Shown here piece after piece: positions 1 to 58,380 of a DNA stretch of 64,000 nucleotides. Under the pieces are notes generated by a model. The model searched no databases. It saw only the letters and a program-made list of their open reading frames with translations, and had not been told where the DNA came from. The position numbers and the translations under genes are program-made. The stretch comes from Tubulanus polymorphus (Eukaryota > Animalia > Nemertea). The stretch lies in contig NC_134028.1 in the NCBI RefSeq assembly GCF_964204645.1, positions 10,354,001-10,418,000 of the forward strand, read 5' to 3'. Position 1 is the stretch's first letter; each line of letters begins with the position of its first letter.

Positions 1-3000
1 CAAAAATCGCGTCATGAAAAATCTACAAATCATATAAAAAATGTAATAGATTTTATAACCCCCGAAAATTCCAATGAACGAAAAGAACGAATAGAAAATA
101 TGAATGTGGATAAAATAAAATGTGAAGTTTGTAATGAATTTATAGTAAAAAGGAATTATAATAGACATCTCGAATCACAAAAACACTATCAAAATTTAAA
201 TAAAAATGTTTTAGGATCAGAATATTTTGATGATAAACCTCAACAAGTAAAAAAATCAACTTCAAAAACTAAATCCATTTCAAATAAACCTTACATGGAA
301 AATGTTAGAAATTATATCGATTCACTAGAAATAAAAGATACAATTGAAATTTCAGAAACATTATATAGTAAAATTGGTCCTGCAGCTATTATATTTAGAT
401 TTTTTAAAGGTACAACAATAGAAGATTATAATAAATTTATTGAATTCATGGAAAAAATACTAGATTTGGTAACAGATGTTGAATATCCAAAAATTAGTAT
501 TTCTAAAAAGTAAGTTTTTTAAAGTCAGAAGATAAAATGGATTATGATATTCAAACACTCTCTGAAGAAATAATTTCAAAAACGCAAATAAAAGAGAAGT
601 TAGAAAAAATATTTAATGAATTTAAACGACATATTGAAAAAAGATATTTTGAGGGTTCTGGTTTAACATTGAATGAAATTATATTTTTAGATTTAAATGT
701 TTATAATACAAAAATGATTAAAACATCAAAAAGTAAAACAATGTTTAAAAATGATTCAAACTTTATAACAGAAAAGGATATTAAAGCATCAAGTTATATC
801 AAATTACCATTTACAACAAAAGCAGTACTAAATATTCAAAATGAAGATAATAAATGTTTTCTATGGTCAATTATTAGTCGCTTACACCCAACTCAGGAAA
901 ATGTTTATAGAACAACAAATTACCAGAAATATGAAAAAAAACATAAAATTGATCAATATCCAGTAACTATAAAAATGATTCCTAAAATAGAAAAAGATAA
1001 TGATTTAAAAATAAATGTATTCGAATTAATACAATTACCAAAGACAAAAGGTGAAAATATTAAAGATTATACATTAGAAGCTTTATATTTAACAGAATGT
1101 TATGATGATGAAAATGTTATAGATTTGTTATATTACAAAAAAGATGAAAATGAACATTATATGTGGTTAAAACAAATTGATTTATTCTTTAGAACAGAAA
1201 GTGATTTCAACAGTCATCATAAGATTTATCTATGTAGAAAATGTTTATCTAAATTTAGAACTGAGAATACATTATTAAAACATAAAGAATTATGTGATAA
1301 TAAAGATTTTTGCAAATTAATAATGCCAACAGAAAAAGATTATAAATTGAAATTTACTAATCATAAATTTAAAAATATTGTTCCATTTGTAATTTATGGG
1401 GATTTTGAATCGTTAAATAACGAATTAACTAATCAAGATAGAAAAGAAATATATAATAAAAAGCAAATTTTAAAATCAATGGATAAAGGAAATGAATTAA
1501 ATGAAGATATAATTCAAGATCCACCAATTATAAACACAATTAAAAAAGTTCATCAAAGAGCTGCTGCTTATGGAATTTACATAAAATCAAATTATCCTGA
1601 ATTATATCAAAGTCAATATATTCCTTTTAGAGGTGAAGATGTAGTTAATAAACAAAATAATTGAATTAGAAAGTGATTTTGCAAAATTATTAAACAAAAA
1701 TAAAAGAATAGTTATGACAAAAGAAGATGAAATTGATTTTAATTACTCAACTCATTGTTGTTACTGTGAAAAACGTTTTCATTCATTTGATAAAAAAGTT
1801 AGAGATCATGATCATTTAAATTCAAAATATCGTGGAGCTGCTCATGAAGATTGTAATTTACAAACTAAGAAAGTTAATTTCGTACCAATATTATTTCATA
1901 ATTTATCGGGTTATGATACCCATCTATTTATAAAACAGTTATCAGGAAAATTGGGCACAATTAATTAAGAAATAGAAGAATATAATGCTATGAATGGCGC
2001 AAATGTAAGAAAATATGATTTTAAACTATTAGCTAAGACATCTGAAAATTACATTTCATTTCAATTTGGATGCATTAGATCTTTAGATTCTTATAGATTT
2101 CTAGCAAGTTCATTAGATAATTTAGCATAAAGTTTAGTTGATAATGATTTTATAATAACTCGACATTATTACCCAAATGAACAAGATTTTGAATTATTGA
2201 GATATAAAGGCGCAATTCCTTATTCATTTTATAAAACACATGATGATTTTAATGTAACAGAATTATTAAAAGGACAATTTTATGATCAATTAAAAAAGGA
2301 GTATGTGAAAGATTAAGTTTTTAATAGAACATTAAATATTTGGAATCACTTTAAGATAAAAAATCATGGTGAATTAGTAGATTTGTATTTAAAATCAGAT
2401 GTTATGATATTAGCTGACATATTTGAAAAATTTAGAGAAGTTAATTTGAATCATTTTAATGTTGATCCTTGTTATTGTTATTCAATTCCTGGTTTAACCT
2501 GGCAATGTGGTTTAAAATATACAAATGTAGAATTGGATTTATTAAAAGAACCAGACATGGTTCTATTATTTGAAAAATCAATTAGAGGTGGAATTAGTGG
2601 TGTTATAGGAGATAGACATTTTAAAGCAAATGATGAATATAAATTATTATATATTGACGCTAATAATTTATATGGTTGGGCAATGATGCAACCTCAACCA
2701 CACAAAATTTTTATATTAACAGAAGTTGAAAATGATGATAAAACTGATTGGGAAAGCGCAATTGCGAGTTTAAAAGATGAAGCACCAATTGGTTATTTCT
2801 TTGTAGTTGATTTAGAATATCCTGATAAAATAAAGTTTAAAACAAGAAACTTACCATATTGTCCAGAAAATTTAGCTGTAGATGATGGTTATTTAAGTGA
2901 ATACCAGAAGAAAATAAAACCGAAAGATCATGTTTTTACAGAAAAATTAATACTTACTCAAAATGATAAATATGATAATATTGTTCATTATAGAATGTTA

Positions 3001-4940
3001 AAATTTTATCTAAAACAAGGAATGAAATTAAAGAAAGTACATGGATTTATTGAATTTAATCATTCGAAGAGGTTAGAAAAATATATAGATTTTAATACCA
3101 AAAATATCAAAAACAGATTTTGAAAAAGATTTCTTCAAATTAATGAATAATAGTTTTTATGGTAAAACATGTGAAAATATTAGAAATAGAAGTGATATTG
3201 AATTAGTAAATAATTCTGAAAGATTAAGACATTTACAATCAAGTCCTAGACATTTAGGAAATAAAAGATTTGAAGATTATTTAACAGCAGTTAAATTAAA
3301 AAGAACGTCAATGAAATCTAATAAACCTATATTCATTGGTTCAACTGTTTTAGAAGTATCAAAATTATTAATGTATGATTTTTATTATAATGTTTTACAA
3401 CCACTTTTTGGGGAAAAGCATATTGAAATATTATATTTTGATTCTGTAACAGCTGACACCCCAATATTATTTAAATGTAATAGAAAAATATTGGTAAGAA
3501 GAATTTCAGAAATAATTCCAAAACAAAATGAATGTTATATTTCATATGGTGAAAAAGAATTAATACAAATAAATGAATTAATAGATGTTTGGACAAGAAA
3601 TGGATGGAAAAAATTAAAGAATATTATTAGGCATAAAACAAATAAGAAAATCTATAGAGTTAGAACTAAATTAGGGTTTGTAGATGTTACAGAAGATCAT
3701 AGTTTAATTAAACGAAATGGTGATGAAATAAAACCAACTGATATAAAAATTGGAGATGAATTATTACATAAAAGTTTTTTCCAAAGAATGAATCATATGT
3801 CATTTTATGAAATAATTGATAATATTTATAATGTAGAACCCGATACATTAGAAGAAAAAGAATATTTTATCAAAGGATTTTTTATGGGAGATGGTTCAGC
3901 AGGTGTGTATAATTATGTTAATCGCACTCAATATCGTTGGTATTTATGCAATCAAGACTTGAAATTATTAGAATGAATTAAGAAATTTTCACATAAAATA
4001 TTTAGAATCGTGGATCATATGAAATCATCAGCGGTTTATAGAATATTTGTAAATAATCCTAAAGATTTTGCTACAGAATATAATGATGAATTCTATATTC
4101 ATGCAATAGTGAAAAGTAATACTTCAACTAAAGAAAAGATAGTGCCAGATTATGTATTAAATGCAAAATATGATTTAAGAAAATGGTTCTTCATTGGATT
4201 CTATGCTGCAGATGGCACTAAAAAATTTACAAAGGATAAAAAGATAACCTTTGCACAGAAAGGAAAAGTTGCAATATCAGGGTTAAATATATAATGAAAT
4301 TCATTAGGTTTTAATATGAATATTGAATTAATTAAATCTAAACCAAATTGTTTTAATTTAAGGCAAGTAGAAAAAGAATTAACAGAAGAAGTTAATGATT
4401 TATTCGAAATATATAACCCAACAGATTATGTTTATGATTTATCAACAGATGATGGAACATTCAATTCTGGGTTCCCATTAATCCTAAAAAAATACTGACG
4501 CCTACATACTAAAAATCAAGACAAATGATATAACAAAAGACTTAAAAACATTAAAACATTATTTTGATTTTAGCAATTATCCCAAAGATCATGAACTATT
4601 TAGAAATGATAATAAAAAGATTCTTGGTAAGTTTAAAGATGAATTAGGGGGTGATGAAATGATTGAATTTGTTGGGATAAGAAGTAAAATGTACAGTTAT
4701 AGAACAAAGGATCATGAAGCTAAAAAGTTAAAAGGAATAACAAAGCACGTGGTTGATAAACATATAGAATTTCAAGATTATATAAAGTGTTTATATAACT
4801 CAATTGTAATGAAACACAAAATGAATTGTTTAAGATCAGAAGATCACGAGATGTACATTAATGAAGTTGAAAAAACTAGTTTGAATGATAAAAGGCATAT
4901 TTTAGATGATGGAATAAAAACATTACCTTATGGTTATTAA
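1..4940 (+). pseudogene. polB: Protein-primed family B DNA polymerase (pPolB) with N-terminal Zn fingers, terminal-protein/vOTU-like region, EndoVII insert and intein
   Basis: ORF pieces 100-513, 537-1664, 1714-1968, 2383-3123, 3143-3976 and 4659-4940 join via frameshifts/stops. ExoI VIYGDFES, ExoII FHNLSGYD, ExoIII YLKSDV, motif A YIDANNLYG, motif B KLMNNSFYGK, motif C YFD|TD, KMY motif, C-terminal TLPYGY. Copy 2 reads in frame across the 513/537 break and shows the start lies ~90 nt left of the window. Confidence 0.95.
3443..4493 (+). other. Intein with LAGLIDADG homing endonuclease in pPolB motif C (degraded)
   Basis: Begins SVTADTPILF right after YFD. Block B VDVTEDHSL; endonuclease motifs FIKGFFMGDG and FFIGFYAADG; block F YVYDLST; ends LILKN|TD if one extra A in the 4486-4492 run is removed. 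Excision restores YFD-TDAYILKIK...GKFKDE. About 350 codons, with stops at 3974 and 4292-4297. Confidence 0.93.
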
Positions 4941-6256: not shown

Positions 6257-6324
6257 TTATTTAGGAACAATTTTATTAAAATTAATTTTTAGTGATGAGC
6301 GGTAATTTTTTTATGTTGTAAATA

Positions 6325-7080
6325 ATGGTAGAATTAAAAGAATACAGAATATTTGTTGATTCTAGAAGACTTACTAATTATAAATCACATAATTTACTAG
6401 TACAATTAGATAGAGAATTTAAGAATTGTGTTGATTTAAAATTAGTTAATGTAAGTTTATGTAATTCTTTTCATAATATATCGAATAAAAGTCTTGATCA
6501 TTTAGCTTTTAAAATTCATGTTAGAAATTTGAATAAATGGTTTCATCTTTATCTAAAACCAGGATTATATTATTTAGAAACATTAGCGCAGGAAATTAAT
6601 AGAAGAGCTCGTTTAATAATGGGTGCAGCTGCTAGATTTGAAATTAAATTTATTAAAAGTGATAGTTCGAATAAAATAAGAATAAACTTAACTAATGAAC
6701 AACATAGATTTCTAGTAAGAAAACCTTTAGCTAAACTATTCGGAATTCTTCCAGATAGAGATTATTCAAGTATCGAAACTTATACAAATTTAATGACTTT
6801 TACACACTTTTATATTTATTGCAATTTAATTGATCCTACAAAAACATTTGAAGCAACTTAAGATACAATTTGTAATTCTAGTATATTAGATATTTTACCA
6901 TTGAAGAACGTTAAACAATTTGGAACTCAAATAAATTATAATTTAGCTGAGTGTGATTTTAAACCTTGTATTCCACATTTCAATAATTTCAAATTAGAAG
7001 TAAGAAATCACAATGGATACTTAATTGATTTGAATAACTTTCCTGTAATTTACGAATTAGTTATGAGATGTAAAGAGTAA
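6325..7080 (+). pseudogene. Minor capsid (penton) protein, single jelly-roll type
   Basis: One in-frame stop at 6859, then the same frame continues to 7080. N-terminal ..LVQLD..SLCNSFHNIS, internal FYIYCNLID and C-terminal NHNGYLIDLNNFPVIYEL match the Polinton penton pattern. Confidence 0.72.
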
Positions 7081-11436: not shown

Positions 11437-12684
11437 ATGAGTGGGAGTTATATAAGTCCTTCTAAGAATTCTAGAATATCTAATGCTATTAAAGCAGAAA
11501 GATCTCATCATATAATTACTCATAATCCTTCTAATATTAATCCCGATGAAACTTTATATGTTAGAATCCCTAGATTAACACAAAATACTTTTTATGTTCC
11601 AAATAGTATTTATTTATCAGCTGATATAAAAGTAACTGGTAATAATAATAATTATGTTGTTGATAATGTTGGAAGATATTTGATTAAAAAATTAACTATA
11701 AAGATTGGTCCAGAAACAGTTTTCTCATTAGATGATTATAATTTATTTACGCATTACAAAGATTTATGGTTAACTAAAGAAAATAGAAATAATATGATAT
11801 TTCAAGGTATCCAATCAGAAAACCAAAATAAATTCAGATCTGAAGCCAATAATGCAGTAGTAACTAATGACGTAGATAATTTGATTAAAAAGATTTATGG
11901 AAGCAGATATAAAATTCCATTAGATTTTGAATTGATAAATAATAATGCACCTTTATATAAATACGCAATTCAAGAAGATGTTATATTCGAAATAACATTT
12001 GCTCCTGTAAATGAAATTGTATTATCTAGCGTTGTTAAAGATATGGGTTATAAATTATCAAATATATGTTTAGAATATGATACAGTAACTGATGAAAATA
12101 TTGCTAACTCAATTCAAACTCAATACAATCAAGGATTTTCATCATCATATCATTATATTGATAAATTTAAAACTGTAACTATTAATGCAAATGATTAAAT
12201 AATTAATGAGAATATTAACTTCCCAAGAAGATCTATTAAAGGCGTATTAATATTTTTTACCATTGCAACATATTCTAATGGCGCAATAAATGTTGATAAT
12301 TATTATAATCCTGAAATAACAAAAGTAGAAATAACTATCGAAGGAATAGCAAATAAAATATTTTGTCAAGGAATGAGAATGATAGATCAATGGCCAGAAA
12401 TCAGAAAACATTTTATGAATGAAAAAGTAAAATCATCTGAAAATTGTAATATTAATCAAATTGATTATTATACCGGCAATAAATATGCATTATGGTTAGA
12501 TTTCAGAATAACTGAAGATAATTTATTACATGGTTCTGGGAAAAAACTACAGAACACTAAAGATGGAATACAATTATTCATGAAAAAGAAAAAAGGAAGT
12601 TTAACTTTAAAAATGCACATTTATATTATATCTGACGCGCAATTAAATATTGTAAATTCTCAATTAGATAGTATTCAATATTAG
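11437..12684 (+). pseudogene. Major capsid protein (double jelly-roll, Polinton-like-virus type)
   Basis: Single 415-codon frame with one internal stop (12196). Motifs THNPSNINPDETLYVRIP, NVGRYLIKKL, LSNICLEYD, YNPEITKVEITIEG, KYALWLDFR..LHGSG, ISDAQLNI resemble invertebrate PLV capsids; adjacent to integrase/ATPase. Confidence 0.8.
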
Positions 12685-12714
12685 AAATATAAAGTTAAAT
12701 TTAACGATATATAA

Positions 12715-13836
12715 ATGGGGGATAAAAAAACTCCTAATACTAAAGAACAATAATTAAGAAATCTAAATTACAACCCTGAGAGTTCGGTTGATTATTCTTC
12801 TGTAAAAAATTTATGGCGCCAAATAAAACAAGATAATTTAGATAAGATAATCCCACAAAATTTAGTTAAATATAAAGATATAAATGATTTTATGTTAGAA
12901 CAACCAACATATACAACACATAAGAAAATTGTTAGAAAATATAAAACTCGTAAAACTATGGTAAGTTATGTAGATCAACAGTGGCAAGGAGATTTAATTG
13001 ATATGAAAAATGTTAAGAAAGATAATGATGATTATTGGTGGATATTGAATATAATTGATATTTTTAGTCGTTATGTATGGAGCTTCCCACTTTATAGAAA
13101 AGATGCTGCACAAACATAACATGTTTTAAGAAAATTTTTTTCGGATGATAAACTAAAACCAGAAAAAATACAATTTGATGATGGAAAAGAATTTGATAAT
13201 TCACTTGTTCATGAACTCTTAGAAAATCATAATATTAGATATTTTTCAACAAAATCGGATAAAAAAGCAGCAGTTGTTGAACGATTTAATAGAACATAAA
13301 GAACAAGAATGTGGAAATATTTTACAGCAAATAATACTTTTAAATGGATTGATGTTTTTCCAAAATTGATAGAAGGATATAATAATTCTTATCATTCTTC
13401 TATTGGAATGAAACCTATTGATGCTAGAAAACCTGAAAATGCTAAAATTGTTTGGAATAATTTATATGGGGCATTTCTTGCAGATGATTTTGGTGAACCT
13501 AAATTTAAAGTTGGTCAAAATGTTAGAATTTCTAAATATAAAAAGATATTTGATAAAGGATACGATCGAAAATTTACTAGGGAAATAGATAAAATAAAAA
13601 AGGTAATAACAACAAAATCATATGTCTTTAAATTAGGAGATTTAGATGGGGAAGAAGTTGATGGGTATTTTTATGAAGAAGAATTGAGTTTAACTACTGA
13701 AAATCTAGAACAAGAATATAAAATTGTATTAAAAACAAAAACTGTTAAAAGAAAAAAATATTCTTTAGTAAAATGGGTTGGATGGCCAGATAAATTTGAT
13801 GAATGGATATTATCAAGTAAAATTAAAAATATATAA
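12715..13836 (+). pseudogene. Retroviral-like (rve, DDE) integrase with C-terminal chromodomain
   Basis: One frame with 3 stops (12751, 13117, 13297). WQGDLIDM, IDIFSRY, QFDDGKEF, VVERFNRT, YNNSYHSSIGMKP; chromodomain LVKWVGWPDKFDEWI. Confidence 0.93.
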
Positions 13837-14460
13837 ATGAATGAGGAATTATTTATATTTGAACCTCATAATATGTTAATTTCTGGCGTAACAAATTGTG
13901 GAAAAACTTATTTTATATTAAATTTATTAGAAACTATTTATAAAAACTATTTTGATAATATAGTATTATTTTGTCCAACATATGAATTTAATCAAACTTA
14001 TGATAGAAATATTACTAGAAATTATAAATTTATTATATTAGATAGTAAAAGTTTTATTAGTAAAAATTTAACATGTGATGAATTAGATACAATGAAATCA
14101 GATGAAATTATTAGATTATTTAAGATTTATGAAACCGCGAGAACAGCTAGAATTAATGATGCGATAGCAGAAAATGTAGTAAAAGGTTATAGAAAATTAT
14201 GTAATTATATGCTGCCAATTCAAAATGAAAATAGATTATATGCTGATTTAAAAAATGATTATTTAGTTATGACTGAATTAAATAAATGGATTGGATAATT
14301 ATCATTTCAATTAGGTGGATTTATGATATTATTATCAACTGGAGTTATAACATTTTCAAATATTGAAAGTAAAAATATTTCTATAATAAATGAACAAGGT
14401 GGAAGAAGTGAAGAAAAAACCGAGAACTCCGAAACAAATTGAATGGTCTCGGCAATTAGG
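13837..14460 (+). pseudogene. 5' part of A32/FtsK-type packaging ATPase fused by deletion to the 3' part of a downstream hypothetical gene
   Basis: Walker A GVTNCGKT present. After ..FIILDSK (~14050) the sequence switches to the homologue of ORF 42043-42633; Walker B is missing here but present in the copy at 43670-44237. Confidence 0.85.
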
Positions 14461-14733
14461 AATTAAATCACAAGAATATAAAAAAAGCTGTAAAAGAAAA
14501 AATAAGTAATAAAAATGGTGAAAATATTGTTATTTCTACTCCTTCTAATAATAGAATATTTGATAAATATCTATATTTTACAGCTGGATTTGTAATTGTA
14601 TTCATTTTGATTGGGTGTAATTGGTATAAGAAATCAAATAAGATTCATGATATTAATAATTCTGAAACAACTGCTATCAAAATGAAAATACTTCTGAAAT
14701 TCCAAAATTGACAATAAAAAAAAATGGATTAAT
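14390..14733 (+). pseudogene. Small basic viral protein with TM helix
   Basis: TAAATG start; MNKVEEVKKKPRTPKQIEWSRQLG..YLYFTAGFVIVFILIGCNW; frameshifted relative to the homologue at 41760-42135. Confidence 0.55.
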
Positions 14734-15007
14734 AATTTTAAAATAAATGAAATCCATGTAAATAATGCTCATTTATATGAAATTATTAAGAGCAATAGGG
14801 AATTTAGGCTTCATTTTAGAGGGAGAGAGGTTTAGTGAGCTCGACCTCCGACCTCTGATCTGAAAGCGCCATTTTCCTAATACTAACATCAACATTTTTA
14901 ACGCTGCCGCCCATACCTGGACCTGTAGTCACCCCCGTTGATTTTGATGGAGATGTTCCAGTGGGTGAAGGGCTATTAGAATTAAGCACATTAAACACAA
15001 CGATAGA

Positions 15008-17010
15008 CAATTCAATTCAATTCAAAATTTATTGCATCCGTATAACGACAAAATTACATAGGACAGACACGGGAATAAAATATTAATACAAAGAGACACT
15101 GACAAATGATAACATAACATAAAAGGAGAGAGAAAAATTTGAGCTATTTTCAAAGAATACCACTCCCCGCCGGTCACTTTTTAAACTTGAAAATACAATC
15201 TACAATGCATAGGTCAAACTGTTATTTCAAACGACGATGCCTACCTCAACCTAGACTCAGGAGGATATCGAGTGGCAGCCAAAACCGATCGGGCAAGGCC
15301 ACACGATATACACCCAAGTCACAGTGAAGCAGACATCAGAAAAGTTCTTTCCTCGACCATGGAGGCAATAAAGTTGCAAACCAGCTTACCCACTTCAGTG
15401 TCATTTTGGTTACATGACATGATGAATTTAAATTGGTCATCATATGATAAACTCTGTAATATAGTGAAGTCAGAGATTTGGGAAAAAAAGGAATGCCTTT
15501 TTGCCCAAGTTTCGAGCAAATCTAGGAGGAAATGCGGCTCATCCTCAATCGAACAATTTTTGCAGAGGAGGCATACTCTATTTTCTATCGGGATTTTTGG
15601 TCTTTTATGACGATCCGTTTCAATTCGTAATTTGTGATTACTGACTCTTAATTTTGAAAATTCTTTGCTACGACTATAACAATTTGTGACCACGTAGTTC
15701 TCCAAACAAAAATTTGAATTGAATAGTTTAAATTTGCGCAGTTTAGGGTTTGAGACAGAGTCATTTACAAAATCATACCATTGTGATGAGTACAAGTGCA
15801 TTGCTCGTTTGCTTAGAGAAAAGGCCACTTTATTGGCAGATGCGGTACTCCCTCGGTTTTCCCAAGTGTTTTCTAGGAAGAAATGGTACAAAAGAGATCG
15901 AACACAATTCCCCCAGTTGTCATCTGTGTTGGTTTGTAGACAGTCTATGTATGACTTGTGAATAAGGCTAGCACTGTCAGAATCACAAACTCTTAACCAA
16001 TATATTATAATTAGAGGGGCAATTTTTACCAGAATGGGAAAATGACCAATGTCTCCTCTGGCTGCTGCATTTGATGTTTGTTTACCAACCCCCAAAAGAT
16101 ATTTAACATAGTTTAGATTGACTTTTTCAGCTGGGGTTACTTCGCATAGAGCGTAAAAGTTGATTGGGTTTCTTTTGTTGAAATGAAAAGCTCCCCATAC
16201 TTCACAACAGCACATTAGGATTGGTTGGATTAGATGCTCGAACAGTTTCAAGGCCGATTGAACATTGTCAGGAATATTCATTGTTTTTAGTTTAAAAAGA
16301 GCTTTTCTAGCATGATCTACAAGTCTTTCACAGGCTTTTTTTAAATTACCAGAGACGTAAAATAGGATACCAAGATAACAGTATTCCTTGACAACTTCGA
16401 TTGGCACACCATTGTAGTAATATTTTTCTGAATTAAAAAGCTTCCCTCCTCTGTTAAAGACAATTACTTTTGTTTTTTCAAGATTAACGGTAAGACCCAA
16501 TTTAGCACAATATGAAGCAAGCTTGTTAAGCGCACAATTGAGACCAGCGTTAGTTCTAGATAAAATGACTAGATCGTCTGCATACATTAGCCAGCTCAGA
16601 TCTGTATCGTGTAGCCTAACTGGATCACATTCTTTAAAAATCGAGGGCAAGTCCTGGGTAATAGATTAAATAGAAGAGGACTCAGGACACCGCCCTGCTT
16701 TACACCAACGTTGGGATTAATGAGTGCACTTAAGCCGTTATTACACTTAACCATGTATGAAACTATAGAATACATGTTATCTAAAACGCGTAAAAAATTA
16801 CCTCCAATACCTAACTTAAGCAGCTTAAAGATCAGTGCCTTTCGGTTAATGGTGTCAAAAGCTGACTTGAAATCAACAAAACAACAATACAGACGACCTT
16901 TAGCCAACTTTCTTGTGAACTTATCGATAAGGCATTTAAGAGTGAGCACATGGTCAGCAGTACGGGTGTTTTTTTGATACCCTATTTGACACTTGGGTAT
17001 AAGATTGTTG
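15008..17010 (-). mobile_element. 5'-truncated non-LTR retrotransposon (CR1/L2 group, Crack/Daphne-like), RT-encoding ORF2 3' half
   Basis: FVDFKSAFD, QGGVLSPLLF, YADD; C-terminal CLLC..EDEPHFL; one frameshift near 16660; 3' end AATAAA plus (TTGAA)n tail. Confidence 0.9.
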
Positions 17011-17056
17011 GCCTGTGCCAACAATCTGATATAAAAGTCAAAACTGTAAAAGAAAC

Positions 17057-17327
17057 GAAACTCATTCATAGGAAATAATATTCTAAAAACCGGACAGTAT
17101 TTTCTTGTCAGACGTTTGGAACAAGGCGTCAAATTCATCCTGTTGTGCAAATCTTATTTCATTAGATTACACGTGAGTAGCAAATTATAATTAGGAAAAT
17201 CAAATCTGATTTAACAAGATAAATTCGCCTAAGATTAGCACAACGATGAATTTGACGCCTGTTCCAAACGGCTGACAAGAAAATACTGTCCCGCTTTTTT
17301 AAATATGGTTTCCTATGAATGAGTTTC
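17057..17327. mobile_element. MITE-like fold-back element
   Basis: ~100-bp imperfect inverted arms (17057-17156 versus 17230-17327). Confidence 0.7.
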
Positions 17328-17501: not shown

Positions 17502-18537
17502 GGCGCGATCTAATACGTACCCGCTGGAATGACGGTCTATATTTAGTAACAAAGCACATGTATTTCCGGTGACTGAAAACACGTTGTTTCCGGATTTCTC
17601 GTAATGTCATCGGGTTCGAGTCCCAGCAGAGGGAGAATGTAAACACTTGAGTATTTAATGAATGTCTTGTCAATGTTTTATTTTGTCGATTTATTACATG
17701 AATCCTATAAATGTTATATATGGTGCAAAAATATAAGTTCAAGTTCATCAATGAAACATCTAAAGTCAGTGGGTTTATATTTAAGCTCTACGGACAGTCT
17801 ACGAGATTCACGTCAATGAACATCGTTTCCTGCAGAAAACTAACTTCTTGTAAATCATTCATAAAGAAATACGATGACGAAAATTGTAATTGAGAGCCCT
17901 TAAATAGCATGGAGTTTCACAAAAATTACTGATGATAAGCTAATGACAAAACCTTCATATTTTGAATTTTTTCGACAATGATTAAGTATTACTTCTGAAA
18001 CCTTATCAATCATGCACAAGAGGAGCTAAGGCAGAAGGTGAGCTCGGTGATATCACTCTTTAAAAAAGAAATTGAAGGAATTTTACCAAATTCACATTAA
18101 CTAACAAAACATATCGAAAAGATAGAGCAACTTCGATACCGGTATGAAATTAGTACCATTGTAGGTTTTTTGATTGGTTTTTCAAATGTAATTAAGGATT
18201 TATTGGAATTCATTGCGAACTTTTGGACATTCAGTTTGAATTTTCTTCAAATTCAAAAAAGTCGGTCTGAAACCGTTTTGTGTAAGTAGCCAATCAAAAA
18301 GGGAAGACATTTTCGTCGATGATTTCAGAAAACTTATTCATGTCTAGACGAAATAATTGTGCTGTATAATTATTGATATAAAAGTTTTATATTTTTTCAT
18401 TTCTGATATAAGAAATGATTCGATCGGGTGGGATTCGAAACCGCCTTCAATATTTTAGATGCTGGTGTTATTGTTATGATTTGTTTTGTTTACATCCGGG
18501 CTACTGTCATTCCAGCGGGTACGTATTAGATCGCACC
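17502..18537. mobile_element. Non-autonomous Mutator(MULE)-like TIR element
   Basis: 35-bp TIRs GG(C/T)GCGATCTAATACGTACCCGCTGGAATGAC(G/A)GT; 9-bp target duplication CTAAAACAT at 17493-17501 and 18538-18546. Confidence 0.82.
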
Positions 18538-20738: not shown

Positions 20739-22395
20739 CTATCCGCTCTATTTTCTCTCGATTCTCCACACTTGCCTTGAATTTTCTAAGTCACGCACCC
20801 TAGTGCGCGTGCGCAACGTGAATTAGCCAATCAGAATGAATCATCGTAAATATAGCTAGTGTCGTCTGTTTACGGCGTCGTAAAAATTGTCTGAGCGTAT
20901 AAAAAAACAAGGGAGCCAACTCTCCGTCAGATCGGTTGATAGGTATGTCACTTGTCACTATATAACTCGTACTTCATAAGTCGTATTTTCATATAAGTCG
21001 TATCAATTTTAGAAGCCAAATCTTCTGATTCCATTCAAAATACACCGCGTTTACAAGTCGTAGCCCGAAATGCCGGCAGCAGATAAAAATACGCTAAAAT
21101 ATTGTCAGTGTAAGTGTTCAGACAGTTACAATGTAATTTTCTTGTGACGTTGTCTGCATGGTGCACGTGGCAGCTTTAATTGATTGATTGAGTGATATAG
21201 GATCTGTAGGATCTGCTCATGATACGATCGGGAACATGACGAACCATGCTGGAATCTGAGCGTCGTATATATCGTGTTTTCACGGGTTATTCAGGGAATT
21301 TGTATAAAACCACGACTTATAAATAACTCGTAAAAATACAACTTACACGTAACTCGTACATCACGTAAGTTGTAGTAAAATCGTCAGTCCCGAGGACTAC
21401 GACTTATGTGGGGTTGACTGTAGTCGGTAACCTGACTGTGGTTTAGTTTCACGATCGAATATTTTCACAAACCACAGTCAGGAATGGGAAGGTCATTTTT
21501 CAATGATATCTTCGTGAGTCAATTTGACTCACGAGTAATTTGCCTGGCATTTTCTGGTCTTTTGAGATATCCGTCTAATTTTTGTTGTAATCAACGCACA
21601 ACAGATTCGTAGTTTGTTTGATACCTATAACACCTCACCTGACGATCTTAATCCATGTGCAAATCGGCTGTAAAGTGAGAGTAAATTTCCGTCAATTCAA
21701 CGGCGGCCATTTTGAAAACTTGTGGAGGGTGCTGGCACCTGTGGACTGAGGCCAGGACCAATTGAAAATACTTTATTGACACTAATAACACAAACACAAA
21801 CTAACGAAACGAAACGACAAAATTGAAAAAAATTAAGAAATCAACACTTATTTACATTTTTCTTCAACCAGAATTTATTTTATTTATTATTTATTATGGA
21901 AAACACAAAGATTTGAAATATAAGTTGGAAAACTATCAAAAATAAAAATTATCGTTTCGTTTTGGAAGTTTTATATAAATCCTTGTAGGTCACCTTGTCT
22001 ATCATGCCACATGTATGCAATACACAGAAATGGTAGCTAATGGCGAAATTTGTAGAGAAATGAATTAATTTCTCAAAATAATGTTGATTAATCACTCGAA
22101 ACATACATAAAATTGGATTATTTCAAAAGGTACCTGTGTTAGTTTGTGAATTAAGCCATTAATTATGGACTGAAGTCAATAGAAAGCATATTTTTGAAGT
22201 GTTACTTTTTTCAACCGTGTTTTGGCCCTTGTCATCCCTAACGTTGGTATTAGCCCATCCGATTATAAAAAGCTTACCACCAACGATTAGGTAACTAACT
22301 AGGTTGACTGTAGCTTCAAAAGACACTTTCTTCTGTTCTTCAGTTGTTAGTGATTCTGCTGCTGATTGACCAATGTTTTCTTCATATATTTCCAG

Positions 22396-33674: not shown

Positions 33675-34741
33675 ATCTACCCTAGACACATCTTCAGCCC
33701 AAAAACTGGCACTGTCAGATTCAAGATGGCTGACTGGCAGCCATTGTTGTTCGCCAAAATCAGCACTTTTTACACATTTTCGAAGTTTTTGAGAAAAATT
33801 TTGAAGACGCTTTGATCAATTACCTTGATCTTTCGTTTGTATTGGAATCTACCAAGGCCCCATCAGCATAAGAAAAATTGGGTCGATCTGACTCAAGATG
33901 GCCGTCCTATGACCTATTTCGTGCCCAAAAATGTCAATTTTGGCCAGAATTCTAGGTCCTGTAACTTCCTACTGGTTTGCCATTTCTCATTGCAATTTGT
34001 GATGGGTATTCTTTGGAAAGGGATGTTTTATACCTAAGACAGGTATTTTTTGATCAGTCAATTATGACGCAATTGGTGGCCATCTTGGTGTCATCAGTAC
34101 TCATTCGTAGGTAGGAAAAAGTTTTTCCACATTAAATTGATACCTAAGCATATTGTGTTACTATATTCAATTGGAAAGTTGTAGCCCATAACATGTTGTA
34201 TGATTTTGGTGAGTTTCAAGGTCATTGGTTTTTGTATGTGGCCACCAGGGGGCTTTGAATAATACAATAACTTAGTATTTCTATATTATATTTGTACCTA
34301 TGCATATTTTGTTACCACAATCAATTGCAAAGTTGTAGCTCATGACATCTTCCATGATTTTGGTGAGTTTTAATGACATTTATAGTTATTCTATATGGTC
34401 ACCAGGGGGCGTTGAATAGTAGAATAGCTTAGTATTTCCTTATTAGATTGGTACCTAGGCATATTTTGTTACCATGATCAATTGCAAAGTTGTATTTCAT
34501 GACATGTACTACGATTGTGGTGAATTTAAGGTCATTGGGTTTTGCATATGGTCACCAGGGGGCGTTGAATAGTAGAGTAACTTAGTATTTCCATATAAAA
34601 TTGGTAACGAGGCATATTTTGTTATCACAATCAATTACAAAATCATAGCTGCTGACATGTTCTATGATTGTGGTGGGTTTCAAGGTCATTGGTTTTTGAA
34701 TATGGTCACTAGGGAGCGTTGGTGTCCCTGGACCCCTAGTT
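33675..34741 (+). mobile_element. Helentron-type non-autonomous element (HINE), 5'-truncated
   Basis: Colinear with 53831-54940; internal ~140-bp tandem units with CACCAGGGGGCGTTGAA; ends GTCCCTGGACCCCTAGT. Confidence 0.75.
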
Positions 34742-35012
34742 TGTTTTTGTTTCTTTTTTTGGTATTGATGGACGATGAATGCATATTGATGGATTGTTTA
34801 GAATTATGTGCTTCTTGTTTAAATGTGCCCTTTTCTACTTTTGGGATTTTTAGGGACGATTAAATATTGTCCATGGCAGTAGCATGTCCCTATGATGCTA
34901 CTGTCTGTATCTGCCCCTGATATACATGTAATCGTAAGGTGAACACAAAAACTCTTGTTTCATTCTGAATTTAAAAACGGGAATTAATGATCATATTTCA
35001 TCTTATCAACAG

Positions 35013-35126
35013 GCAGCGGCTATGGCTAAAAGAAAAAATCCAACTGAACAAACTCAGAGTGATGGCAAGTTATCTAAACATCAAGTGAATAATTTACTAA
35101 AACGATTTCCCCAACCAAAATCCTAG
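35013..35126 (+). CDS. CHCHD1: CHCHD1 exon 3 (to stop)
   Basis: CAACAG acceptor, phase 0; AAAMAKRK...GKLSKHQVNNLLKRFPQPKS* matches the CHCHD1 C-terminus (N.LL.RFP). Confidence 0.9.
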   Translation, partial: AAAMAKRKNPTEQTQSDGKLSKHQVNNLLKRFPQPKS

Positions 35127-36481: not shown

Positions 36482-37513
36482 ATGGGAGACAGTGAGTTCC
36501 AAAAAATTGATGTTAATAAAAATTAATATTATTGTCCGTATTGTAAAAAGTACATCAATAAATCTAATAAATCTCGTCATGAAAAAATGTTATAGATTTT
36601 GAAACTCCAGAACATTATAATGAAAGTAAAGAACAATTAAATAATTTGAAAAAAAAGATTAAATAAAATGCGATTTTTGTAATTAAAACGAATTATAAAA
36701 GACATCTCGAATCACAAAAACACCAACAAAATTTAAGTAAAAATATTTTAGGAACAAAATATTTTGATGATAAATCTAAACAAATGAGAAAATCTATTAA
36801 AAAAACTACATCTATTCTAAATAAACCTTATATGGAAAATGTTAGAAATTATATCGATTCACTAGAAATAAAAGATAAAATGGAAATCTTAGAAATATTA
36901 CGTAGTAAAATTGGACCTGCAGCTATAATATTTAGATTCTTTAAAGGAGCAACAATTGAAGATTATAGTAAATTTATTGAAATAATAGAAAAATAATGGA
37001 TTCTGTAACAGATGTTGAATTTATAAAAATAAGTATTTCTGGAAAAGTAAATTTCATAAAATCAGAAGAAAAAATGGAGTATAATATTCAAACACATTCC
37101 GAAGAAATGATTTCGAAAACACAAATAAAAGAAATTAGAAAAAATATTTAATGAATTTATAAGACATATCGAGGAAAGATATTTTGAAGTTTCTGTTTTA
37201 ACATTGAATAAAATTTTATTTTTATTATATTATTTATTATTTTTAAGTTAATTATTTAAAAATAAATATATTCGAATTAATGCAATTACCAGAGACAACA
37301 GGTGAAAATATTAAAGATGATTACACATTAGAAGCTTTATATTTATCAAAACATTATGATGATGAAAATGTTATAGATTTATTATACTATAGAAAATATG
37401 AAAATGAACTATAAATGAATATATGAATATATGTGGTTAAAACAAATAGATTTATTTATCAGAACAGAAAGAGATTTAAATAGTCATGATAATTTATTTA
37501 TGTGGAAAATGTG
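36482..37513 (+). pseudogene. polB: Polinton-like virus fragment: 5' part of pPolB (second copy)
   Basis: Aligns with 1-690 and ~1005-1240 (internal deletion); includes the start MGDSEFQK..YYCPYCKKYINKSNKSRHEK after TTTTTTTCTATATAAATG. Confidence 0.88.
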
Positions 37514-38410
37514 ACCATGCGTTAATTATACAGATCCATCATCTTGACGGCTATAGAGTTCGAAGTACATCTTGATTCGAAAGAAAATGTATGGAGAAAA
37601 TCGTCAGATAGTCAACTTTACGCTACAGAAATTAGAAACAAGAGTCAACTTTTTTAGTCTAAAGTGTGGCTAATAATATCACTAAACTGAACTTCAATAT
37701 TTATCAAAACATTATGATGATGAAAATTTTATAGATTTATTATACTATAGAAAATATGAAAATGAACTATAAATGAATATATGAATATATGTGGTTAAAA
37801 CAAATAGATTTATTTATCAGAACAGAAAGAGATTTAAATAGTCATGATAATTTATTTATGTGGAAAATGTGACCATGCGTTAATTATACAGATCCATCAT
37901 CTTGACGGCTATAGAGTTCGAAGTACATCTTGATTCGAAAGAAAATGTATGGAGAAAATCGTCAGATAGTCAACTTTACGCTACAGAAATTAGAAACAAG
38001 AGTCAACTTTTTTAGTCTAAAGTGTGGCTAATAATATCACTAAACTGAACTTCAATATTTATCAAAACATTATGATGATGAAAATGTTATAGATTTATTA
38101 TACTATAGAAAATATGAAAATGAACTATAAATGAATATATGAATATATGTGGTTAAAACAAATAGATTTATTTATCAGAACAGAAAGAGATTTAAATAGT
38201 CATGATAATTTATTTATGTGGAAAATGTGACCATGCGTTAATTATACAGATCCATCATCTTGACGGCTATAGAGTTCGAAGTACATCTTGATTCGAAAGA
38301 AAATGTATGGAGAAAATCGTCAGATAGTCAACTTTACGCTAGAAATTAGAAACAAGAGTCAACTTTTTAGTCTAAAGTGTGGCCAATAATATCACTAAAC
38401 TGAACTTCAA
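37340..38410. repeat. Near-perfect tandem triplication, 358-bp unit (pPolB fragment plus flanking DNA)
   Basis: ATTTATCAAAACATTATGATG at 37341, 37699 and 38057. Confidence 0.92.
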
Positions 38411-41605: not shown

Positions 41606-41759
41606 ATAAAAGAATAAATTGATAATAAAATTAATTAAATATTAAGAATCCGAAATGACTTATCTGGACAATTTATGCTCCGCATAGATAGACAAAAGTA
41701 GTGAGATATTCAATTACTTAAAAATGATATTATTTTTTTTTGCTTTTTTTCTAAAATAT

Positions 41760-42667
41760 TAATCCATTTTTTTTATTGTGAAGTTTGGAATTTCAGAAGT
41801 ATTTTTATTTTTAATAGTAGTAGTTTCAGAATTATAAATATCATAAATTTTATTTGATTTTTTTTACCAACTACATCCAATCAAAATGAATACAATTACA
41901 AATCCAGTTGTAAAATATAGATATTTATCAAATATTCTATTATCAGAAGGACTAGAAATAACAATATTTCCACCATTTTTATTAACATCTTTATTATTTA
42001 TTTTTTCTTTTATAGCTTTTCTAAATTCTCTTGATTTAATTCCTAATTGCCGAGACCATTCAATTTGTTTCTGAGTTCTCGGGTTTTTTCTTCACAGTTA
42101 ATCCTTTCACCTCTTCCACTTCGCTTATTTATTGAAGACAAATTTTTACTTTCAATATTTGAAAATGTTATAACTCCAGTTGATAATAATGTCATAAATC
42201 CACCTAATTGAATTGATAAATATCCAATCCATTCATTTAATTCAGTCATAACTAAATAATAATTTTTTAAATCGAAATATAATTTATTTTCATCTTGAAT
42301 TGGTAGCATATATTTACATAATTTACTATAAACTTTTACTACATTTTCTGATATCGCATCATTAATTCCAGCTATTCTCGCAGTTTCATAAATCTTAAAT
42401 AATTTAATAATTTCATCTGATTTCATTGTATCTAATTCATTATAAGTTAAGTTTTTACTAATAAAACTTTTATATTTCCCAGATGCTATTAATATTTCAA
42501 ATTGGTGTTTGCAATAAAGATAATATTCATAATTATTGTTTGTAGTAATATCATTTAAAGCACCATTATCATCTGGTGTTAATTTTGTTTCTGTTACACC
42601 TAAATCATCCAGTTTTTTCAATTGGAACATCACTATTTCTAGATTTTATTTTCTTTTCACCTCCCAT
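41760..42667 (-). pseudogene. Polinton-like fragment: hypothetical gene plus small TM gene (homologues of 14046-14733)
   Basis: ORF 42043-42633 shares SFISKNLT.NELDTMKSDEII..YLVMTELN.WIG with 13837-14298. Confidence 0.85.
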
Positions 42668-43669
42668 TTATATAACAAAAAAATTAATTGTGTTGTTGCA
42701 ACTAGAATTTCACTCTAGAATTCAACTAGAATGTAACTAAAAATATACTAGATTAACAAGCTAGTTGAAATATTATAGTTTTTATTTATTTCTTGTTGAC
42801 TTTTATTTGATTTTTGTTTCAACTACCAATAACTAATTTCAACTAAAGATATAATAGATTACCAAGCTAGTTGAGTTTAAATAAATTCATATTTAAATGG
42901 GTGTTGAAATCGAAATAGTAATTTTGACCTTTTATTATCTCGAGCGAAGCCCACAAATCGTAATGGGTCCAAAAATCGAAATTTTGCTTACAAACGAGGT
43001 TATAACTTTGACACGAAGTCATGCAATCTACTATGTTTATGTGCAAAATGTAGCTTCATCAGCTGCTAAAATCTGTTGGAAATGGAATTTTGAATATCGC
43101 GTAATCGAGAAATCGACGAATTTGTGGCGATTTTTAAAGAAATTTCAAGGAGCATTTTGTTTCATAAAACGGCTAGAAGGCCGATGTACAACGTTACATT
43201 GAAGTAAAATAACTGCTCCCTGCGGTTGGCTGAGCTCCCGCTGTCAATCAATGTAAGGGCATATTCGATTGACGCAGACAAACCGGTCTTTTGATCTTCT
43301 CATCTATTAATCTATTAATCTGCTCGGTTCTAGTTTCTCTAGTTTCTCATTTCCCAGTCATGGGAGAGTCTTATATGTTTATTTTTAATTTGATAGCCGT
43401 AGTATCGATTCCGTCTCCCCATATCTATTTCATTATGCAAATAACCGAAGATTCAATCGATACGCTACTTCACGGAAGATTATGCGCGCACAATCGAATA
43501 GGCCCAAACCTCGTGTATTGCCGCGATGATTGCTGATTAGATTTCGATGATGTTGTTCACCGAAATCAGCAGATTTTACACATCCATGAAGTTTTCAAGG
43601 AAAACCTTAAAGATTCATCAATCAGATGGCGCCTATACATTACAAAGATACCCTTCTGCGCCCGAGATA

Positions 43670-44237
43670 TTAATATCCGTGGATCTCTTCTTATTTTTCA
43701 ATTTATCCGTATATTCATGATGTAAATCATGTGGAATAATATCATTTTCCTCAAGTGCATTTTTCATCGATTTTCTATCTTTATTGTAGAATAATACTAA
43801 AAATCTAAAGTTTTCTCTAAAATCTTAAACAATTGAATTATATTTTTGATTTAAACCCACCTTGTTATCCCAAAATGTCTTCCAGAGAAAGCTAAATAAC
43901 ATAATTCACTCTCTCTAATTTTAAAATCATGTAAATTTGCACAATCATCTATGATAAATAATGTATTTGCTCCATTATGAATATCAATTGCTATTTTAAT
44001 ACAATTATCTAAATTTTCTTTAACTGTTTTAGAATCTAATACAATAAATTTATTATTTCTAGTAATATTTCTCTCATAAGTTTGATTAAATTCATACGTT
44101 GGACAAAATAATACTATATTATCAAAATAGTTTTTATAAAGTTTGTAATAAATTTAATATAAATAAGTTTTTCCACAATTTGTTACACCAGAAATTAACA
44201 TATTATGAGGTTCAAATATAAATAATTCCTTATTCAT
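43670..44237 (-). pseudogene. A32-type packaging ATPase (second copy)
   Basis: ISGVTNCGKT, Walker B LFIIDDC, arginine-finger motif LAFSGRHFGI; frameshifted. Confidence 0.88.
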
Positions 44238-45305
44238 TTATATATCTTTAATTTTTTTACTTGAGAGTATCCATTCGTTAAATTTATCCGGCCATCCAAC
44301 CCATTTTACAAAAGAATTTTTTTTCTTTTTCTTTTAACAGTTTTTGCTTTTAGTATTTATTCAATTTTATATTCTTGTTCTAGATTTTCAGTAGTTGAAC
44401 TTAATTCTTCTTCATACCCATCAACTTCTTTACCATCTAAATCTTCTAATTTATAGACATGGTTTTGTTGTTATTACCTTTTTTATTTTATATATTTCTC
44501 TAGTAAAATTACGATCGTATCCTTTGTCAAATATCTTTTTATACTTAGAAATTCTAACATTTTGACCAATTTTAAATTTAGGTTCACAAAAATCATCTAC
44601 AAGAAATGTTCCATATAAATTATTCCAAAGAATTTCAATTTTGGTAAAATATCAATCCATTTATAAGTATTATTTGCTGTGAAATATTTTGATATCTATC
44701 AAATACTTTTCCATCATAAAATTGTATTTTTTCTGGCTTTAGTTTACCACCTGAAAGAAATTTTCTTAAAACTAATGATGTTTGTGCAGCATCTTTTTTA
44801 TAAAGTGGGAAGCTCCACACATAACGACTAAAAATATCAATTATATTTAATATCCACCAATAATCATTATTATCTTTTTAAAGATTTTTCATATCAATTA
44901 TATCTCACTGCCACTGTTGATCTACATAACTTACCATAGTTTTACGAGTTTTATATTTTCTAACAATTTTTTTATGTGTAGTATATGTTGGTTGTTCTAA
45001 CATGAAATCATTTATATCTTTATATTTAACTAAATTTTGTGGGATTATCTTATCTAATTTATCTTGTTTTACTTGGCACCATATACTTTTTGCAGAAGAA
45101 TAAGCAACCGAACTCTCAGGGTTATAATATAAATTTCTTGAATATTTTTCTTTATGATTAGGAGTTTTTTACCCCCATTTATATATCGTTAATTTTAACT
45201 TAATATTTTTAATATTGAATACTATCTAATTGAGAATTTATAATATTTAATTGCGCATCAGATATAATATAAATATGCATTTTATAATTTAAACCTCCTT
45301 TTTTC
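44238..45305 (-). pseudogene. Integrase (44238-45178, internally deleted) and MCP C-terminus (~45210-45305), second copy
   Basis: Reverse-complement match to 12590-13836. Confidence 0.88.
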
Positions 45306-45469
45306 TATTTAGCCAAGGCTAACATTAGGGCTTCTTCGGTCCATCAGAACTAAGAGTAAATACTACCGAAAATATAAAAGAACAAAGCGACCGTGTCATT
45401 TCGAACAATATAGGGAATACCGTAATAAGTTACATAGATTGCTTAGAGTTGCTGAAAAGCGTTATTGTG

Positions 45470-49681: not shown

Positions 49682-51252
49682 TTAAATTGTAACATCTCTG
49701 GATTCATTCATTGTGATATTGGTTTCGGTTTCCACGTCATTGACGCCAGATATGTCATGCGTTACTGACATTGTATCATTAGAATCAGTATTAGTTTTCG
49801 ATTCAATTGTTGTTGGAAATATCGACTTTGTTGAACAGTCATTATCTGCAGTGGCTTGTCGCATATCGTCGTGGAGAGAATGTGTTTTGTGATGGCGTTT
49901 GAGTTTGTCTAATCGATTGAATTGATGACCACAAATTTCACAACAATACGGTTTCAATCCTTTCTCGTAGATGCGATGGTTTTTCAATCCGGTGCTAGTC
50001 GTGAAGGTTTTTCCACACTCGGTGCACATGTACGGTTTTAAACCTTTATGCACCCGGATGTGAGTCGTTAGATGTCCTCTTTGTCGAAAGGACATTTCAC
50101 AATATTCGCACTGAAATGGTTTTTCGCCGCTATGAACCCGTAGGTGTTTATTTACGTCTCCTTTCGTGAGAAACTTTTTACCGCAAACGGTGCAGACATG
50201 ATTTCTTTCCCCACTATGTATTTTCATGTGAGATTTAAGATGATCTTTAGCCGAGTAATGTTTTCCGCACACTGCGCATGTGTGAGGTTTCTCTCCCCGA
50301 TGCCAACGCTTATGTTTATCTAAATGACGGAGTTCCTGGTAAGATTTGCCACACTCTTCGCAGACGTGAGGTCGAGAATGACACTTGTTGTGAGATTTTA
50401 ATCTTGAACGCAAAGCAAATGATTTACCGCATGTTTCACAAGTATACGGCATCACCCCGGTGTGGATGTTCATGTGATCACGTAGATCGCACTGTTCAAA
50501 AAAACCTTTTCCGCAATCCGGGCAAATCAATACGTATTGTTTAATACCGTGCTGTCTTTGATGTTTAGCTAAACCATTCGCGGTTTTAAAGTTACTGTCA
50601 CCGCAATAACTGCAAATAAACGTCACTGTTTTACCCTGATCTTCTGAGTGAAATCTTCTCAAATGTTGCCTTAAATAATTTTTTGATTTGAATAATTTCT
50701 GACAAATTTTACACTGTAATTTGTCCTCTGTTTTACACTGTAGTTTTTCCTCTATTTTTGGTTCAATTCTTCCGGATTGATGATTGTCTTTATCGATAAA
50801 CATTGAACTTTCCCCTTCACCTTGAAGAGTAGCAGCGTCAAGTTTTGTTATTTCACTGTTTTCATATTGAGATTCACATCCTAGTAACGGAAGTTCTACA
50901 GGTGTGCCATCACCCACCAATGGTATTTCCATTTCCTCGAGGTCATTACTTTTACTGGTGGTGTTAACATCACCCTTCATTTCTAAAACTTCTTGAGTTA
51001 ATTTAACTGGTTTATTTTGTTTCCTTGAAGATCCAGATGCTTTCCGGTTGCTATGGTAAACCATATCGTGTTTCACCAGTAAACCAATATTAGGGAATGA
51101 TTTTTCACAGACTAAACAGAACTGTAGTTGTGGTATATGATCATTGTTATAAAATGAGGAGGCACCATTATGGTACCTATCATTGTTTCCGGACGTGTTG
51201 CTTTGATCACTATCATTATTACCTCGTACATCTCTGCAGTGACTATTTTCAT
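49682..51252 (-). CDS. C2H2 zinc-finger transcription factor, main coding exon (11 fingers, one degenerate)
   Basis: Open frame from the TTTTAG acceptor (51254-51253) to the stop; repeated C-x2-C...H-x3/4-H with GEKP-type linkers. Confidence 0.92.
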
Positions 51253-51331
51253 CTAAAATAAAAGAAAATAACTGGCTTAATTAATGCTTTGCCAGGCAAT
51301 GAGAAAAATTTACAAAAAAATCAAAACTTAC

Positions 51332-57670: not shown

Positions 57671-58380
57671 ACTAGAATGAGGCAAAGCCTCGAATGCCCC
57701 TGGCCTGAAATTCACCGCCAGGTGAAGTTACAGGGTTTGTGGTTACAATTATTTCTATAAGAATGATATCAGAGAACATGTGTACTAAGTGTAAATAATT
57801 TATCAACAGTTGCAGCGTCCAGGCTGTTTTCCCCTGATGGCCATAATTTGAAAACAATCGTTCAACAATTGTGGCCTCTAGGCTGTTAACGTCATTCTTC
57901 ATGTCGGCCCCCTGGTGGCAATAATTTGAATTGACTCCAATCTTAAATAGGGTTCTGGCCGAAGTGATATCCTACTTGTGTACCAAGTCTGAAATGAATC
58001 GGTCACCAATTGCAGCCTCTAGGCTGTTAACATCGTTTTTCACGGCCCCCGGTGGCCATAATTTGATTCGAATCAACCCAATTTTAAGTATGGTTCTGGC
58101 CCAAGTGATATCCAACTTGTATACCAAGTTTGAAATGAATCCGTTAACAATTGCGGCTTCCAGGCTGTTAACGTCGTTTTTCATGTCGGCCTCATGGTGG
58201 CCAAAATTTGAATCGAATCGACCCAATTTTAGATAAGATTCTGGCGCAAGTGATATCCTACTTGTGTACCAAGTTTGAAATGAATCGGTCCACAATTGCG
58301 GCCTCTAGGCTGTTAACGTCGTTTTACATGTCGGCCCCCTGGTAGCCATAATTTGAATCCATTTGACCCAATTTTAAATA
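57671..58380 (-). mobile_element. Second HINE-like family with ~150-bp internal tandem repeats
   Basis: ACTAG end plus hairpin GAGGCAAAGCCTC; repeated GGCCCCCTGGTGGCCATAATTTGA..GGCCTCTAGGCTGTTAAC units. Confidence 0.6.

Follow-up and report, generated by a model that had tools for sequence, protein, structure and literature searches.

Introduction

Inteins at the pol-c position (site III) of DNA polymerase B (PolB) are known from Mimivirus, other Nucleocytoviricota and archaea, where they join a Ser1, a terminal Asn and a Thr+1 to a TxxH block and LAGLIDADG motifs in about 350 aa at motif C (351 aa in the Mimivirus PolB; parts of PMC549080), and the intein described here, found in a 64,000-nucleotide stretch of DNA that was analysed whole (hereafter the window), resembles them in all of these respects. 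It differs from these Mimivirus-type inteins in its host, which is a protein-primed PolB (pPolB; PF03175) of a small integrating Polinton, and in that the inteins of Polinton pPolBs form a clade of their own with variable residues at positions -2 and -3 and not the YGD of the Mimivirus type.

Within the same class of elements, Polinton/Maverick (adintovirus) pPolBs have been reported with HNH or VSR endonuclease insertions (sections of PMC10748475), and a paper drawing on that source has speculated that nuclease insertions in polinton pPolBs stem from intein invasions (sections of PMC11071308). The pPolB in the window likewise carries an Endonuclease_7/HNH-like domain; whereas the HNH and VSR insertions come, in those sections, without a reported splicing domain, the window holds a complete Hint plus LAGLIDADG intein within the catalytic motif. 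The terms 'intein', 'Hint' and 'LAGLIDADG' have 0 occurrences in the main text of PMC10748475, inteins go unmentioned in PMC8502044, and the accessible portions of PMC12220804, PMC13768754, PMC4104785 and PMC3671162 hold nothing further on inteins in pPolBs. Full-text searches of the literature, covering main texts of papers, yielded no account of a protein-primed PolB with a splicing intein.

As in the window, viruses have acted as vectors that bring inteins into nuclear genomes elsewhere: nuclear scaffolds from Klebsormidium, Tetrabaena and a labyrinthulomycete encode viral-like DNA polymerases with inteins, and Anaeramoeba has nuclear inteins (PMC10710043, in part). Those hosts are algae and protists and the polymerases are of giant-virus type, whereas the window represents an animal-type genome with a high-copy Polinton in intein-plus and empty alleles. 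Chilo iridescent virus provides an intein in an animal-infecting virus, as here, but it is of the Gln type and its carrier is a free NCLDV and no integrated Polinton (cited in PMC549080), and inteins have been stated to be absent from metazoan genomes (PMC8529194, in part). At this locus an element of a familiar type occupies a host of a new type, which challenges a standing generalisation, and the inteins of Polinton polymerases apparently constitute an undescribed clade of full-length inteins.

Starting from the anatomy, insertion site, plus/empty polymorphism, multi-copy state and site-local divergence observed here, we propose, with a probability of about 0.82, that the insert is a decayed class-1, double-LAGLIDADG intein in motif C of the pPolB of a Polinton, that this is a multi-copy element likely integrated in the germline of a likely animal host, and that its intact relatives are predicted to be self-splicing and likely homing.

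An intein within motif C of a Polinton polymerase

The 1051-nt insert sits between both Asp of motif C (YFD|TD), as the sequence-only reading had placed it: TAT TTT GAT (YFD, 3434-3442) abuts Ser1, and ACT GAC GCC (TDA, 4494-4502) follows. We translated the intein with an X for each stop, and then read it for motifs and searched it against profiles. Ser1 is in frame in the N-terminus SVTADTP, the block F Asp is in frame at 4436-4438, and both LAGLIDADG-type motifs have acidic residues (Table 1). The Mimivirus PolB intein begins SVTxDTP. Two profiles exceeded their cut-offs, TIGR01445 intein_Nterm with 29 bits (cut-off 24.5) and LAGLIDADG_3 with 24.6 bits (cut-off 22.5), while Intein_splicing matched at E 2e-5, under its cut-off, and the PI-PkoII intein endonuclease at E 3e-5; these domain matches are not due to chance, and the earlier call of an intein with two LAGLIDADG motifs held.

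The copy is decayed, as had been claimed: its reading frame meets three stops (3974-3976, 4292-4294 and 4295-4297) and changes in the A-run at 4486-4492, and by its sequence the copy must be regarded as inactive, able neither to splice nor to home. Because of that frame change, the terminal Asn codon (4491-4493) is readable only in the frame of the C-extein, and the Asn|Thr junction is supported by a natural close relative, P0400 (71% identity over 160 aa), whose intein ends LIVKN|TDA. The window intein shares 59% identity with the intact intein of P0002 and 37-40% with inteins of uncultured giant-virus PolBs. A Hedgehog-type or bacterial intein-like Hint domain was ruled out, since the insert has an endonuclease embedded in it, its junction is Asn|Thr and exact empty alleles exist.

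Table 1. Features of the window, with coordinates counted from its first letter.
Feature	Position	Strand	Evidence
N-extein, Polinton protein-primed PolB, start at or before window edge	1..3442	+	PF03175 E 4.7e-12
Decayed intein (Hint splicing domain enclosing a double LAGLIDADG homing endonuclease)	3443..4493	+	
Block B TxxH = TEDH	3689..3700	+	
First LAGLIDADG-type motif YFIKGFFMGDGS	3863..3898	+	PI-PkoII match
Second LAGLIDADG-type motif WFFIGFYAADGT	4184..4219	+	LAGLIDADG_3 and PI-PkoII matches
Blocks F and G (YVYDL...FNSGFPLI)	4427..4493	+	
C-extein, polymerase C-terminus with the motif C residues Thr(+1)-Asp	4494..4940	+	P0144/P0147 similarity
Possible minor capsid gene, one stop	6322..7080	+	Position and size; without family match
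Double-jelly-roll (DJR) major capsid protein gene, one stop	11437..12684	+	Capsid_N E 0.0025, weak
Retroviral-type integrase with chromodomain, broken	12754..13836	+	rve E 7e-4, Chromo E 0.0045
A32-type packaging ATPase, broken or with an internal deletion	13837..14298	+	Pox_A32 E 1e-5, over cut-off
LINE-type retrotransposon adjoining the element's right end	14807..17153	-	RVT_1 E 9e-13 and 3e-9
Second decayed fragment of the element's family (pPolB 5' part)	36582..38228	+	78-83% identity to 36-1244
Third decayed fragment of the element's family (integrase to ATPase)	41712..45310	-	87-93% identity to 12583-14784
Tandem C2H2 zinc-finger ORF, host-type	49682..51280	-	zf-C2H2 E 2e-39

The PF03175 match, which exceeded its cut-off, agrees with the proposal of a protein-primed polymerase as host gene. 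Its N-extein lies in four pieces (1-513, 507-1664, 1645-3123 and 3089-3442) with stops and frame changes, includes the zinc domain of Endonuclease_7/HNH-like type, and near the site is 75% identical to the empty pPolBs P0144/P0147, to which the C-extein is 75-77% identical. The capsid gene had an Atlas score of 0.97 with Preplasmiviricota/DJR clusters, one of them mostly Mollusca, but its recognition value was under threshold and we treat it only as a lead, and the rve and Chromo matches on the broken gene at 12754-13836 were both under their cut-offs. Judged by these matches, the pPolB and, downstream of it, the capsid gene, the A32 ATPase and a putative, broken rve-chromo integrase represent the Polinton/Maverick gene set, in keeping with the Polinton context first read from the letters. 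No adenovirus-type cysteine protease was matched in the 34 scanned ORFs and no terminal inverted repeat was seen at the element's right end (~14807), its left part and left end lying beyond the window.

The element forms an AT-rich block that opens the window (14.8 kb at GC 0.21-0.27 vs 0.35-0.40 further on), with a GC step from 0.24 to 0.38 at its right end. Further along lies the zinc-finger ORF, whose best match among solved structures was mammalian ZNF568 (E 7e-81); tandem C2H2 zinc-finger arrays point to an animal genome. The remainder of the window is rich in repeats. Three near-identical 358-bp tandem units at 37339-38354 each include part of the Polinton polymerase's 5' region, and a short mobile element of very high copy occupies ~21420-22300, where many reads connect ~21476 with 22242-22268 and most copies accordingly lack a nested insertion of ~770 bp. 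Decayed transposase fragments at 24848-25793 and 31532-32224, which by their motifs we take to be hAT-like, had no Pfam match at 0.01, and repeat families of ~154 bp, dispersed and tandem on both strands, lie within 33675-35551 and 53900-63700.

Copy number and intein-free alleles in reads

The sequence stretch was found in four of the ten runs listed, all from one study with the same species label, and we evaluated raw DNA reads of a run from a second study with that label (run X5, 12% of the run used). At 85% likeness, depth in X5 was ~120-255 over the intein and ~215-560 over the exteins, and the lowest host bin (18015-18415) had a depth of 3.4 at 92% likeness. As the intein depth is tens of times that of the host flank, the intein-bearing form is present in tens of copies, a rough number, since its baseline is a single bin of 400 bases measured at another stringency than the intein. 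Depth fell from ~200 to ~55 at 14807, and no junction-spanning read or contig at 14.8 kb was among the records listed; flanks and read depth suggest germline integration in a likely animal host. Exact intein-free alleles exist in the same species as the window copy: 24 X5 reads with 16 different starts skip exactly the insert and join 3442 to 4503 via nine letters that encode Thr-Asp-Ser in three codon spellings.

Intein-plus and empty alleles within polymerase clusters

Intein-plus and intein-minus alleles, which the sequence-only reading had suggested seeking, were found beyond these reads in three clusters of pPolBs that mix the two with N-exteins 95-100% identical. For cluster P0005, which has 121 members, the 15 listed include 3 that carry the intein and 1 that is empty, and P0125 and P0128 are identical over 120 residues on either side of the site. 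All 10 members of cluster P0140 were listed, with 3 plus and 2 empty, including the exact pair P0140 and P0368. For cluster P0137, with 136 members, the 15 listed comprise 7 plus, 6 empty and 2 that lack coverage of the site, the plus copies lying on contigs of 95-1018 kb.

Comparison of plus with empty alleles at the protein level revealed a patch of divergence at the insertion site. In cluster P0137, 9-11 of 30 residues differed near the site vs 1-6% elsewhere; plus-plus pairs differed at only 1-2 of 30, and empty alleles also differed mutually near the site. Cluster P0140 showed 3/30 differences near the site vs 0/577 elsewhere, and the P0125/P0128 pair of cluster P0005 showed no site-local protein divergence (0/30). 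As controls we used 42 non-overlapping close pairs of empty pPolBs, mostly of one large family, which differed at 82/1260 residues near the site (6.5%) vs 2018/24531 far from it (8.2%), with none of the 42 showing a site-local excess at p<0.01. Because the patch occurs in two of three mixed clusters and in 0/42 control pairs, homing and escape are suggested, and the divergence may be a homing footprint left either by empty survivors with a diverged target or by donor flanks brought along with the intein.

Two empty alleles of cluster P0137 (P0357 and P0359) have D-C-D-S for D-T-D-S, such that the codon of the +1 nucleophile differs. One pPolB lineage with plus and empty members (P0136, P0138, P0259 and P0151-P0176) has lost the motif C aromatic (ASD|TDS, SSD|TDS) or carries it shifted (GFDTDS), which may represent an old escape from homing.

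Related inteins in protein-primed and other polymerases

The best match of the N-half of the window intein was P0002 (63%), a pPolB of 1693 aa that is intact and bears the same insert, and the other matches were mostly RNA-primed PolBs. In nine further 90%-identity clusters (P0002, P0004, P0005, P0136-P0140 and P0259), which cover both PolB classes, a pPolB is interrupted at motif C by a full-length intein, with partial inteins in P0150 and P0400; P0004 belongs to a much more divergent class (pPolB2) and sits on a long branch, and the record of P0259 assigns it to a MAG of a bacterial clam symbiont. Most pPolBs are empty, with motif C uninterrupted in 102 of the 108 examined. None of the nine intact pPolB inteins has lost Ser1, TxxH, either acidic LAGLIDADG motif, the block F Asp, Asn or Thr+1. 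Their residues at -2 and -3 vary (YFD, YSD, ASD, FTD), and a YGD|TDS site is found in 151 of 190 extracted intein relatives. The window intein fits the pol-c allele by its xxD|TD insertion and by homology to other pol-c inteins. Its penultimate Lys, initially taken as unusual, was ruled out as a special feature, since Lys is the commonest residue there among TD-flanked inteins (95/174; His 50/174).

The structure of the intact P0002 intein was predicted at pLDDT 91.6 from a 59-sequence alignment, a single-sequence prediction having given pLDDT 40. The best PDB matches of the model were PI-PkoII, TliVMA, PhoVMA and PI-PfuI (E 4e-16 to 2e-12), and its best viral matches (BFVD) were NCLDV PolBs of a phycodnavirus, Pandoravirus, Marseillevirus and Megavirus. 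Searches for the DNA context of pPolB-intein relatives found none in viral contigs (queries P0002, P0138, P0140) or in genome contigs (queries P0400, A3), the loci obtained with queries A1 and A3 were giant-viral or unlabelled and read YGD|TDS in all 16 that were inspected at the site, and a phage collection yielded two weak matches only.

The same pol-c intein family also occurs outside these hosts. Polymerases of the gp43 type from T4-like phages carry it in P0014, P0284, P0416 and P0469, and the inteins of P0014 and P0284 cluster with those of giant viruses (96/89 to 99), a placement that suggests intein exchange between phages and eukaryotic viruses. In a set comprising P0003, P0048, P0060, P0067 and P0328, related inteins were seen at xxD|TD sites of type II topoisomerases (as many as 3 in P0003) and of a protein assigned to the ADP-ribosylglycohydrolase entry of Pfam, which, as far as sequences tell, is non-allelic spread to D-T-D-like sites.

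Phylogeny and origin of the intein

Inteins of at least 300 aa were placed in a quick 65-row tree and a careful 36-row subset, for which the analyst chose rows and outgroup; neither tree includes a Mimivirus sequence. Eight pPolB inteins including that of the window formed one clade (100/100), within which the window intein grouped with P0002 (100/96). Their sister was a set of inteins from PolBs of giant-virus MAGs, from related PolBs and from T4-like gp43 (80/91, not starred), most of which share with the window intein the block G form FN[STC]GxPLI; P0139/P0140 branch apart with another block G form. With moderate tree support, the closest outside inteins are those of giant-virus and T4-like PolBs, and the predicted kinship with Nucleocytoviricota pol-c inteins gains from this sister group as well as from the NCLDV PolB fold matches.

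A single origin of the pPolB inteins was not rejected (AU p 0.357), leaving two independent invasions, as the different block G of P0139/P0140 might have indicated, unsupported; a position of P0004 outside the other seven was likewise not rejected (AU p 0.139), leaving its nesting among pPolB1 inteins unsupported. On a 47-row extein tree built by a quick method, from which three pPolBs with an unparsed site were left out, intein presence required 9 changes vs 9.3 with shuffled labels. Among pPolB1 carriers, intein and extein branching largely agree, with many empty relatives. The capture of the intein appears old and not particular to the window copy, and the simplest reading would be an old capture from the viral pol-c pool followed by descent, repeated loss and re-invasion within lineages, with the intein having likely moved at least one time between the two pPolB classes. 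Because diversity is much greater in RNA-primed PolBs, and given the chosen outgroup, we infer a direction from giant virus to Polinton, presumably by way of co-infection.

Alternative explanations

It is possible, though on the unlikely side, that the intein is genuine but homes only in free-replicating Polinton-like viruses at co-infection, with integrated copies as passive fossils and the mix of alleles reflecting repeated endogenisation of strains. The decay of the window copy and of two further fragments would fit this, and donor-strain flanks carried with the intein could give the site-local divergence; against it, full-length plus and empty genes of cluster P0137 are 98-99% identical beyond the site and lie on long contigs, a likeness that fits recent exchange in one repeat family and does not indicate where the exchange took place. 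Distinctly less probable is an intein ancestral in Polintons that has passed by vertical descent with precise loss and no longer homes. Although the largely agreeing intein and extein trees within pPolB1 and the single origin not rejected by AU are what such a history would leave, both endonuclease motifs are kept in 9/9 intact inteins at ~40-60% identity, which pure vertical descent is not expected to preserve, the divergent pPolB2 of P0004 has an intein of the same 100/100 clade, and it is chiefly around the site that alleles diverge.

We judge it very improbable that the element comes from a contaminant or symbiont, such as a protist or free virus, and was wrongly assembled into animal DNA, which would leave no intein in an animal genome: the sharp GC step at 14.8 kb and the lack of a junction-spanning read among the records listed speak for it, but sequencing runs from two studies that share a species label contain both the element and its low-copy flanks, the decay of the element resembles that of a genomic fossil, and elsewhere in the window two further fragments are found amid host repeats. 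We retain the proposed reading of a decayed Polinton intein with intact relatives, an intein that likely still spreads by homing, as intact and intein-free versions coexist in related elements.

Proposed mechanism and significance

Class-1 intein chemistry is established and is the basis of the splicing scheme proposed for intact copies. The precursor would be translated, and Ser1 would undergo an N-O shift helped by the block B Thr/His and the block F Asp, after which Thr+1 of the polymerase would accept the N-extein and the terminal Asn would cyclise, restoring YxD-TD. Since the motif is restored by splicing, the virus would replicate only with working splicing, and since the polymerase would be dead without it, the intein would be shielded from loss except by exact removal. 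The freed endonuclease is predicted to cut the empty motif-C alleles that other copies present in that nucleus carry, and their repair on an intein-plus template would spread the intein, with targets supplied by the high-copy integrated family or by co-infecting virus genomes in one nucleus. The source long ago was likely the pol-c allele of a giant-virus (or related) PolB, and the intein would afterwards have been inherited and repeatedly lost along Polinton lineages, with a likely move from class to class.

If this reading holds, two generalisations are broken, at least for virus-derived DNA, namely that there are no metazoan inteins (stated in part of PMC8529194) and none in protein-primed PolB, and the giant-virus mobilome is linked to the Polintons of animal-type genomes. 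Plus, empty and site-diverged alleles in single repeat families offer a natural, countable system for homing in a eukaryotic nucleus, and the intact natural members are candidate protein-splicing tools and candidate homing endonucleases adapted to animal cells. In its furthest form, to which we give even odds, the proposal is that animals harbour functional self-splicing inteins, a pol-c clade in germline Polintons that homes intragenomically, crosses polymerase classes and drives escape mutations at the catalytic motif; if true, this would amount to an intragenomic gene-drive arms race within an endogenous virus.
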